Below are positions 45,015 through 47,847 of a stretch of 64,000 nt of DNA, in pieces (position 1 is the first letter of the stretch; every line of letters starts with the position of its first letter). The DNA is from Antedon mediterranea (taxonomy: Eukaryota > Animalia > Echinodermata): positions 19,378,912 through 19,442,911 of the forward strand of contig NC_092675.1 in NCBI RefSeq assembly GCF_964355755.1. Direction: 5' to 3'. The position numbers were made by a program, and so were the translations under genes. The notes below the pieces were generated by a model. That model was not told the DNA's origin, searched no databases, and saw nothing but the letters and a program-made list of their open reading frames with translations.

Positions 45015-47847
45015 ATGTCATGTGCAGAGGAATTTTTTAGTGAGCAGGAAGCTCACGTTCGGCGCACACACTTGAGGAAAATGGCACGCGTGCCAAAAAA
45101 TATTAAACACGATAGATATTTTCCTCAGCGGCACGCGTGGCCGATTCCTCACGAAATCCCCGGGGCACACTGCTGTGAGGCAAGTGTTACTCGTGGCAGT
45201 TGGCTCAGCCGAAAGCTCCAGTGTGCGCCGGGCTTTAACGTGCTGCTGTTAGTCTAACATAGGCTAGGCCTAGGCCTAATTAAGTAAGTAATAGCCTAGG
45301 CTTATCCTAGGCCTAGTCCTCTAGAGACTAGACCCTAGCCTGTAGGCTAGGGCTAGTTAGTATAGGTAGCTAGCTAGGCTAGCCAGGCCTAGCCTCTAGC
45401 CTACCTAGGCCTAGGCTAGGCCTATTAATTACGCTAGCCCGGCCTAGGCCTAGTAGTAGGTAGGTAGCTAGCTAGCCAGGCCTAGCCTCTAGGCCTAGGA
45501 GGACTAGTAATTACGCTAGCTGGGCCTAGCTAGCCTAGGCTAGGCGTAGCTTAACTTAGGCCTACTTACTAATACTAGCCTTAGCTAGGCCCTAGCCTAT
45601 ATGCCTACCTTTCTAACTAACTAGGCTATATATAATATATAGGATATGCCCCTACCTAGATATAGGCCTAGGCATAGCATATATAGGCGCGGCCTAGGCT
45701 AGGGCATAACTAAGTACTACTAGGCCTAGACTATAGGCTAGACCCCTAGTTTTAGTTAGGGCTAGTCTATTAGAAGTTATTTAGGCATATAGTAGGCTAT
45801 GCCTACTCTATTACTACTAGGCTAGACCTAGTAGAGCGTAGCGTGATAGTAGGCCTACCTAAGATATAGATATAGGCTCGCCTAGTAGAAGACTACTAGC
45901 CTAGGGCCTAGTCTACTGACTGGAGCCTAGCATAGGTAGAGGTGAGCCTACTACCTAGGCCTAGACTAGGCCTACTTATTATATAGGAGGTAGGCCTGGT
46001 AACTAGGCCTAGCTAGGTTAGGCCGGGCCTATCTACTATCATCAAGCTTAGGAGGTTAGCTAGCTAGCTAGTTAGGAAGTTACTACTAGTACTAGCATAA
46101 CCATAGAATACTATTACTAATTAGGCCTAGCTAGTAGTAGTACACTAGGTCTAGTCTACAAATAGCCTAACTAACTAGCCTAGCTAGTAATACTAATAGA
46201 CCCTTGCATATAGGCCTTAAACTAACCTAACCATTTAGTTAGGTATGATTTACAGTTCAATATATGACCGTAGGGCCTAGTAGGCTAGTTATTGGGCATT
46301 TCTGTAGTCTAGTACTAGTAGGAAGTAGACAGCTGACGTAAGTTCTAAGTACCACACAAAAGACTAGCTCTAGTAATAGTAATACTGTAGGTTACTTATA
46401 CCAAGCTAGCTGGGGGAGCATATTATTCTTAATCTTATTATACAGATCGTATTAGATTATTATTATTATTGAATAAATACATTGTGAATTTTTTTCTCTT
46501 TTCTTCTTAAGTAGATCTCAACCAGATGCACGCCAGCAAGCAAGAAGAAAGTCAGTATTTGGAAGGATTTGGGCAGCAGTGCTTCATCTTTTGTGTATCA
46601 GAAGTGACGAATCATCGGATAGTAACTTAAGTTCGTCATCGTCGTCATTATCAGCATCACCATCTCTATCAGCGGGCACAGTGTCGGCATCGCTGTCAAT
46701 GGGGTACACGTATCTGTACAACAGTCATCATCAAAGTCTCTATCAAAGTCATCAAGATCACATTCGTCTCTGTGGCCAATGCCATCCACATCGTTATCTT
46801 CAAAATTCGCGCTTTCTCCTGGCCATATACTTACCACACCAGGTCTATCACCAGGGGAGGTGATCCTCCCAAAGCAACGTGTTTATAGTTTCGTCGTCGG
46901 CATCATCTTCATCGTCTACCGCTCCGGTCCAGCGCATTTTCAGACAACCAACATCAGAGTTATCACCCGGTGAGATACCAGAAAGGAAACGTCTTTGTAG
47001 TGTGCCATCATCGTTGTCATCGCAATGGCCATTGTCACCTACCAGTAGCTTCAATGGTTCGTCCCGTTCTTCGAAAAGTAACTCCACCACTTCAACACTA
47101 AACCCGTCCTTAACGATATAGATGCTACAATAAAACTTGCTGAAATTCTTCCGCCTGCTCGGTTATTAGTTAGTTCAAGTGTTTCCCACCTTAGTAATCC
47201 TGTACGTCTTGGACAGGGAAGTTTTGGCCGCGTTGACCTGATGACATCCGATCTTTTTCCAGGCCACTATCACCTCGTCGCAGTCAAGACGGCTTTTTTG
47301 AACAGTTTCAGCAATCCTGATCAAGCATGGGGCTATATGCTGGTAGAAGCGCGTGTGATGAAGTTTTTAGACGATCTGCCTTCTGTTCCTCGCGTCTTTG
47401 GCGTCTTCCGCCAAGGTGACGTATGCTGTATGGTGCAGGAGTTTATCGGAAATACTTTCACCCTTTCCAGTACCACATTCCTGGATGTATTGCAAACCGG
47501 ACAGTCGTGCTTTGAGCGCGCTTGAATATATCTCTATGACATCAGAGGTTGTCATTGCACTCAACGAAATGCACAAACGCGGGATTCTCCACAACGACGT
47601 AGCTGCGAGAAACATCCTGATCCAGCACGATGGAACCAGCTACAGAGCGAAGCTTACAGACTTCGGGATGGCATGCAGAGTACAATATCCAAGAGGACAC
47701 AGAGAGTTAACCTTTTCATCGTTGGACGAAGTAATTCAATACATGGATAATCATCCAGAGGTAGCACCAGAAAAATACATTGACGGTGCTTGCGATTCTG
47801 TTAGCGGTGACGTGTATTCCATCGGTTATGGTATACGTATTGTTTAA
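45015..47847 (+). pseudogene. Two-exon protein kinase pseudogene (Ser-rich linker + TK-like catalytic domain)
   Basis: Exon 1 is 45015-45247 (GTTAGT donor) and exon 2 starts at 46515 (phase-2 compatible). Motifs LGQGSFGRV, VAVK, EARVM, MVQEF, HNDVAARNIL, KLTDFGMA, APE and DVYSIG are split by frameshifts near 47118 and 47510. It stops after subdomain IX. Confidence 0.8.
45260..46400. repeat. Non-periodic TA-punctuated tract (TA-GGCC-TA, TA-GGC-TA, TA-GCC-TA, TA-GC-TA, TA-G-TA...)
   Basis: The sequence parses almost entirely into TA dinucleotides separated by 1-5 nt G/C-rich spacers, with no fixed period. It fills the kinase intron. Confidence 0.9.

Follow-up and report, generated by a model that had tools for sequence, protein, structure and literature searches.

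A kilobase tract of TA-bounded G/C words beside a crinoid kinase copy, probably accreted from the excision footprints of a TA-targeting transposon

Introduction

That transposons leave footprints on excision, and that they may re-insert beside one, is well known from the accounts drawn on here (PMC7913693, PMC6943129, PMC1925063). Sleeping Beauty leaves TACAGTA or TACTGTA, ZB leaves 0-3 bp and Passer 0-4 bp (PMC6943129, PMC7913693, PMC9976928). CAG/CTG is the canonical Sleeping Beauty footprint, footprints of 1-2 bp are described from mouse spermatids, and footprints of 2-4 nt are also on record (PMC6943129). Passer, a pogo element, prefers transcription start sites and the 5' ends of expressed genes (PMC9976928), and for Stowaway repeated insertion and excision has been described at one TA, in intron 4 of the Triticeae beta-amylase gene (PMC1925063).

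Elements with G-rich termini are also on record. A published table of pogo elements holds, among the rows listed, one G-ended element that duplicates TA, an Entamoeba Fot-like element with a GGGG end, and the other G-ended rows listed have TAA or TAAA duplications (PMC7386202; the rows of its supplement 3 considered here cover 24 of 26 TAGG, 4 of 5 GGC and 4 of 99 GGG word-starts). The PHIS elements comprise PIF/Harbinger (TWA duplications), ISL2EU (GG ends, AT) and NuwaII (C-TNA-G), as given in the part of that survey used here (PMC4482050). In the portion of a teleost study cited here, the accessible linkers of hypomethylated promoters in medaka and zebrafish hold TA-containing 6-mers, GCTAAC among them, for which no factor is known (PMC5607494).

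Here we analyze a stretch of 64,000 nucleotides, called the window below, in which an earlier note had seen a tract of about 1.1 kb apparently built from stacked footprints of an element with GGC...GCC ends. On balance we think it probable that this tract consists of excision footprints accreted beside a probable promoter and left by a cut-and-paste transposon that targets TA and has G-rich ends.

Results

Extent and composition of the tract

The density of CTA and TAG bears out the extent claimed for the tract (Table 1): it climbs steeply at 45251-45300, from 0 to 10-15 per 50 bp, and declines by 46400; the left edge, at 45260, is sharp. These 1141 bases hold 228 TA dinucleotides and 227 spacers. 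Compared with 1000 dinucleotide shuffles, TA-GGCC-TA (15 observed, 1.46 expected, p = 0.001) and TA-GGC-TA (11 observed, 4.75 expected, p = 0.008) are in clear excess, but GCC (7 against 4.9) is not significant, so that of the three words said to be among the most frequent only GGCC and GGC are enriched. The spacers G, C and GC do occur as had been listed (18, 16 and 12 times), but none exceeds the tract's own dinucleotide shuffle, and GCCC, which was listed as well, has 0 occurrences in the tract; rarer spacers are GGGC (2), GGGCC (2) and GGCCC (1). Against trinucleotide shuffles GGCC is borderline (15 against 10.5, p = 0.054), because that null already contains most of the word.

We refer to GGCC, GGC, GCC, GGGCC and GGCCC as core words and to G, C, GC, GG and CC as short words. 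The tract contains 36 exact core words (31.6 per kb), 55 short words and 30 words one substitution away from a core word, which cover 201 (18%), 186 and 166 of the 1141 bases, respectively. Counts are balanced between the strands (GGC 11/GCC 7, G 18/C 16, GG 5/CC 4). Where a spacer mixes G and C, the order is G then C in 50 of 56 cases, and the lack of C-then-G spacers may be due to CpG loss (observed/expected 0.21).

Core words are interspersed and are not neighbors above chance (GGCC 1 against 0.91 expected, GGC 0, GCC 0). Identical adjacent spacers number 20 against 7.0 expected, an excess driven by GC, empty and AC spacers. The head-to-tail periodicity of a micro- or minisatellite was seen neither in core-word adjacency nor by Tandem Repeats Finder, which returned only weak matches over short stretches (scores 31-44); the description of the tract as having no period is right to that extent, but a stretch of about 100 bp is duplicated once within it. 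Rfam gave 10 weak matches, all far under the gathering score. The folding z-score of the tract, -7.3 against 20 shuffles, arises because the words are palindromic, and it is not taken as evidence of function. With a single TTAGGG and no GGG or GGGT spacer, the tract does not look like telomere-derived sequence.

Table 1. Coordinates of the features discussed, in positions of the window
Feature	Position	Strand	Basis or remark
Tract of stacked TA-bounded words	45260..46400	.	word counts, CTA/TAG density
Promoter-side part of tract	45260..45893	.	highest core-word density, 41 per kb
Older part of tract	45894..46400	.	20 core words per kb; parts also found in organism B and in organism A paralogues
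Internal direct duplication, ~100 bp	45332..45538	+	45332-45453 vs 45431-45538, 77% over 125 columns
Allelic site	45346..45352	.	other haplotype has 6 more bases, one extra GGCC-TA unit (X1 vs X2)
CpG-rich probable promoter of kinase unit	44700..44890	+	CpG observed/expected 1.37; promoter function putative
High-copy MITE fragment	44889..45237	.	depth up to 101,208; loose ends 44889, 45235-45237
Frameshifted copy of multi-copy crinoid protein kinase	46531..47844	+	first match to relative starts 46531
Bidirectional promoter region	27451..28900	.	between sperm-tail PG-repeat gene (-) and Surp/G-patch CHERP-like gene (+)
6-bp insertion at TA, tRNA-Glu array spacer	50466..50471	.	unit alignment
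TAGGCCTA inside LINE ORF	40808..40815	+	two extra residues vs relatives
TA-GGCCC-TA in one copy of local duplication, plain TA in the other	12061..12069	.	copy comparison
Palindromic MITE, first family	18291-18566, 40078-40725, 42274-42468, 61660-61870		
Palindromic MITE, second family	9189-9279, 23714-23869, 31482-31609		

Haplotypes and related copies

A 942-nt contig of the public run X1 equals 45240-46141 with zero differences, and further contigs tile 46112-46517 exactly. Run X2, from the same sample, gave a 948-nt contig with 2 substitutions and one 6-bp insertion relative to the window. This support comes from assembled contigs rather than raw long reads, and the individual sampled is probably the one from which the window comes. 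Because the X1 contig is identical and the X2 contig carries the longer allele, the DNA of the tract is real and polymorphic. The extra GGCC-TA sits beside an identical unit, and the allelic indel is therefore indistinguishable from slippage. Three TAC/CTA indels were found against organism B, one of which (at 46191) is non-tandem and two of which are tandem to like units.

The shared part of the tract lies downstream. Positions 46112-46495 are common to organism B, with 12 substitutions and 13 gap letters over 384 bases and multi-copy depth; 45894-46076 is common to one organism B contig, and 46313 onward to other organism A paralogues. The stretch 45260-45893 has single-copy depth in organism A and no long organism B homologue among the matches listed, and is likely the youngest part of the tract. 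Core words by tract halves number 25 on the promoter side against 11 (p = 0.03). A shared 3' part and about 630 single-copy bases on the 5' side fit growth from the promoter side.

Genomic setting

The tract is placed between the truncated MITE and the kinase copy. The kinase unit (about 44660-47950) is multi-copy in organisms A and B, and a relative of the kinase is found in Anneissia japonica; the unit in the window has a Ser-rich N-terminus, several frameshifts compared with other copies, and the MITE fragment at its probable TATA region. Organism B copies run on from the CpG-rich stretch into a TATA-like word. A polypyrimidine run and AG at 46490-46526 precede the kinase coding match, and a donor-like GTAAGT is present at 45284-45289. 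Given the CpG-rich stretch upstream and the polypyrimidine run and AG before the coding match, the tract is likely the first intron of the kinase copy, with acceptor and donor predicted from the sequence. Run X8, which may be RNA, gave no usable splice joint; the long joints were not taken as signs of splicing because most of them have sides of 20-30 letters and stem from unrelated word-rich loci.

The right end of the adjoining MITE reads ...GGGCT followed by TTA/TAA, its left end is missing, and from its end features we take it to be Harbinger-like. As a donor of the tract words it was rejected, since its end is of the AGC type with TWA. Palindromic MITEs of two families also occur in the window; their ends are AGC...GCT, their flanks TAA/TTA, and they are presumably Harbinger-like too. 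LINE reverse-transcriptase fragments lie at 43486-44610 (-) and 40737-41873 (+). A 160-residue coiled-coil-like ORF within a CHERP-like intron (35677-36159, -) is one that we take to resemble retroelement ORF1, and a 16-bp tandem array at 62689-63029 (21.5 copies, graded variants) is possibly a subterminal repeat of a mobile element.

Insertions at TA outside the tract

TA-directed micro-insertion occurs in this window. Filled and empty sites can be paired in the tRNA-Glu array, in the LINE ORF and in the duplication at 12061, and these pairs confirm that words are inserted at TA with the TA doubled: the site is plain TA when empty and TA, a short spacer and TA when filled, as in footprints of IS630-Tc1-mariner/pogo elements. 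The spacers in the tract, of about 0-4 nt in either orientation, also agree with such footprints, apart from a few 5-nt forms above the published range. Duplications of the TWA, AT, CWG or TNA type (PIF/Harbinger, ISL2EU, Nuwa) were not seen at these sites, where the empty state is TA only.

In the tRNA array (50003-60348) a unit of 180 bp recurs in tandem, and every unit has its tRNA-Glu(TTC) gene on the minus strand; ARAGORN finds 52 genes, including one Lys anticodon variant and two undetermined, and there is a higher-order repeat of about 2334 bp. The 6-bp insertion listed in Table 1 is also found at 52902, 53439, 55236, 55773 and 59684, that is, in 6 of 57 aligned units and in two lineages. 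The outer units are empty, and five filled units are 1-2 substitutions from the nearest empty unit. The sixth is 8-12 substitutions away from the other five, which implies two insertion events, or one event plus conversion. A like word 12 bases downstream of the insertion in most units could have been the template.

In the LINE ORF, the motif containing TAGGCCTA has 28 residues. Among the 72 relatives in which the motif was counted (79 further proteins are without it), it has 26 residues in 61 and 28 in one. A LINE protein of the window is 99% identical to a protein labelled Antedon mediterranea, and with the kinase relative in Anneissia japonica this identifies the source of the window as a feather star, of the genus Antedon. 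No TAGGCC or GGCCTA template lies within 300 bp of the LINE site or of the site at 12061. The earlier note had held that indels which are tandem copies of their neighbors would speak against footprints: those of the three filled and empty pairs outside the tract are not tandem, but the allelic indel inside it is.

Word enrichment in the window and in metagenome loci

In 50.5 kb of background, with the tract and the arrays masked, the four TA-bounded words with the strongest enrichment are GGCC (13 against 0.5 expected), CAG/CTG (37 against 12.2), GGC/GCC (14 against 4.4) and ATAA/TTAT; G, GG and GC are barely enriched. The count of such words against a null, which had been proposed genome-wide, was thus run in the tract and this background, and the footprint word of the Tc1 type, TA-CAG/CTG-TA, is indeed enriched in the same window as the G/C words.

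A search with a 19-nt tract motif found 119 metagenome loci, most of them apparently of animal origin to judge from Pfam matches, and 0 matches in the viral contigs searched. In the 99 non-redundant loci analyzed with the seed masked, which were selected for carrying such words, GGC/GCC occurs 247 times against 33.5 expected, GGCC 230 against 4.5, and GGGCC/GGCCC 15 against 1.9. In the same loci G, GG, GGG and GC are not enriched (GGG 15 against 19.7, GC 53 against 62.4, GGGCCC 0), and TA-GGGT-TA is (31 against 5.2). Among homologous loci, 77 clean indels comprise 20 that are TA-bounded (8 non-tandem) and 57 that are not, with 2 core scars. Pooled over the loci, TA-AGCT-TA (23 against 3.5) and TA-CATG-TA (21 against 5.5) are also in excess; elements with AG and CA ends may have left them as scars, and the indels include one non-tandem AGCT insertion at TA. 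In loci from other organisms the words grade into a pure hexamer array (L052:840-1050) or lie within arrays of telomere-like TTAGGG/CTAGGG variants next to a BIR-domain ORF (L059:100-330).

Association with promoters

Both flanks of the bidirectional promoter carry word patches, with 10 core words and 7 CAG/CTG words. The flanks have 10 core words per 157 TA against 1 per 1567 TA in the adjoining CpG-poor gene bodies, a contrast that comes from one locus with borders drawn after inspection and with the 43-bp array of the last CHERP-like intron left out. CAG/CTG words are less restricted (7 in the flanks, 18 in the gene bodies). CpG-rich intergenic DNA has 0.3-1 core words per kb, far below the density of the tract. 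The array that was left out is a perfect tandem array of 8.9 copies at 38578-38958 with one TA-GGC-TA in its unit, so that a scar would have been amplified there as a passenger. Small patches of TA-bounded words also lie at 43175-43210 and 42840-42915, with no gene start identified nearby.

Candidate donors and their ends

No inverted-repeat element of the form TA-GG...CC-TA was found in the window or in the 119 metagenome loci; the inverted-repeat scans of the window returned Harbinger-like and other MITE arms. Among 68 ORFs selected from the 277 of at least 130 residues in the metagenome loci, Pfam recognized one IS4-type transposase (L029) and none of the Tc1/pogo type. We regard IS630-Tc1-mariner/pogo as the likeliest class of donor. 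Ends of GGC with 3-nt overhangs would give GGC/GCC, GGCC, GGGCC/GGCCC and rare GGCGCC. The ends and 3-nt cut that had been proposed fit the observed spectrum, in which GGC/GCC are about as common as GGCC and far more common than GGGCC/GGCCC, but GG ends with a 2-nt cut, or cohesive GGCC ends, come close behind; GGC with 3-nt overhangs has a slight advantage over GG with 2 nt.

Simulated growth and proposed mechanism

When slippage is simulated without bias, core words reach a density of 0.1-1.2 per kb against 31.6 observed, and simulated core scars alone give a TA density of at most 0.15 against 0.20 observed. Slip-dominated simulations have 33-207 adjacent identical spacers against 20 observed, and 1-9 short words against 55. 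The observed statistics are approached when 30-40% core scars are combined with 40-60% trimmed scars and 10-20% slippage; the set of trimmed scars was chosen after inspection of the tract, and these fits therefore show sufficiency only. The idea of stacked footprints gains from the fact that the words arise at TA and that slippage alone fails, but exact scars account for only the 18% of bases given above. To build the tract, short TA-bounded inserts are required as well, along with some slippage and the ~100-bp duplication, the last two being secondary contributors to its length.

In the mechanism we propose, each landing of the transposon would double the TA, and excision would leave the terminal bases of the element as facing overhangs. 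End joining would convert these into GGC/GCC, GGCC, rarely GGGCC/GGCCC, or trimmed scars of 0-2 nt. Each scar would add a new TA target in accessible germline chromatin, so that new scars would pile up on the promoter side and the older ones, farther downstream, would decay. Secondary gains in length would have come from slippage of short units and from the one ~100-bp duplication.

Discussion

Several explanations do without a transposon. We consider it unlikely that the words are a signature of host break repair, in which open chromatin is cut at TA with a stagger, the ends are filled in, G is added and the ends are joined, a terminal-transferase-like polymerase or telomerase adding 1-2 G to both 3' ends to give TA-G(m)C(n)-TA. 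Such repair would explain why no donor was found in the window or in the 119 metagenome loci and why the whole spacer series is a G-run followed by a C-run, and the short words needed to build the tract, the telomere-like arrays in some metagenome loci and the excess of TA-GGGT-TA point the same way. Against it stand the sharp limit at two G and two C (no excess of GGG, GGGCCC or GC in the metagenome loci), a tract with its single TTAGGG and without GGG or GGGT spacers, and the enrichment of a published footprint word, CAG/CTG, alongside; we know of no host nuclease that doubles TA. A cryptic microsatellite, expanded from a few seed words by slippage and local duplication with no continued insertion at TA, is decidedly unlikely. 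The excess of identical adjacent GC, empty and AC spacers, the internal duplication, the tandem allelic indel and the pure hexamer array that the same words form in L052 are what it would predict. However, the core words are strand-balanced and not adjacent above chance, unbiased slippage produces almost none of them, slip-dominated runs yield too many identical neighbors and too few short words, and non-tandem insertions exist outside the tract.

An assembly artefact, which the earlier note had named as something that would overturn its reading, is next to impossible: low-complexity, hairpin-prone sequence might invite one, but independent contigs of two runs reproduce the tract and the related organism B shares its 3' part. 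Selection for regulatory sequence, that is, clustered binding sites or nucleosome-positioning words kept beside promoters, seems very improbable to us. It could draw on the clustering of words at both flanks of the bidirectional promoter and on the TA-containing 6-mers that the teleost study, as cited here, places in accessible linkers of hypomethylated promoters (PMC5607494). However, the words arise also in a LINE ORF, a tRNA spacer and intergenic DNA, and the tract varies between haplotypes and paralogues and precedes a frameshifted copy; selection leaves the doubled TA unexplained, and it could act on scars afterwards.

Accretion of transposon excision footprints remains the reading we prefer, and a wider conjecture can be attached to it, though we hold it only tentatively: a promoter-seeking transposon family in crinoids and other animals might write kilobase lengths of first-intron DNA de novo by self-feeding scar accretion. 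Growth on the promoter side would then be tape-like, scar density would map germline open chromatin through time, and the TA-rich motifs of teleost promoters may be scars too. On the reading we prefer, footprints, usually taken as rare by-products of a few bases, would here be a sequence-building force: some 200 TA-bounded units within one kilobase, concentrated near promoters, differing between the haplotypes of a single individual and capable of lengthening an ORF by whole codons. If a donor is found, the scars would register past transposition and access to germline chromatin directly and in a form that can be dated; they would also be a source of length for first introns and would explain by mutation promoter motifs now read as regulatory.

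Comparison with known systems

A literature search with most subscription journals outside it returned no kilobase tracts of stacked scars and no TAGGCCTA described as a scar. Teleost promoter-linker 6-mers resemble the tract words in being short, TA-containing and enriched in accessible promoter DNA; they are different words, described as a nucleosome code, and no insertion origin is proposed for them in the part of the paper cited (PMC5607494). The PHIS elements have purine or GG termini of the kind proposed here, and Harbinger-like MITEs are common in the window, but in the published account as used here their target duplications are not TA, whereas the empty sites in the window are plain TA (PMC4482050).

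G-rich termini like those of the proposed donor occur in Fot and Fot-like pogo elements. Among the rows listed, the G-ended Fot-like elements come from fungi, oomycetes, algae or amoebae and mostly have TAA or TAAA duplications, and two echinoderm rows end in CAG, unlike the G-ended scars here (PMC7386202). The tract words share with IS630-Tc1-mariner footprints the doubled TA around a strand-symmetric spacer of 0-5 nt; they differ in that the spacer is G-then-C, in being natural and stacked to about 1 kb, and in that the donor is putative. The preference of Passer for transcription starts is a precedent for the piling up of scars on the promoter side. The Stowaway case is similar in that footprints lie in an intron and a new insertion lies beside an older footprint, as far as the account cited goes (PMC1925063). 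It concerns one site with few events and with the element present, whereas the tract described here holds some 200 TA-bounded words. What this window adds to these systems is a stacked, polarised, promoter-side tract of scars.
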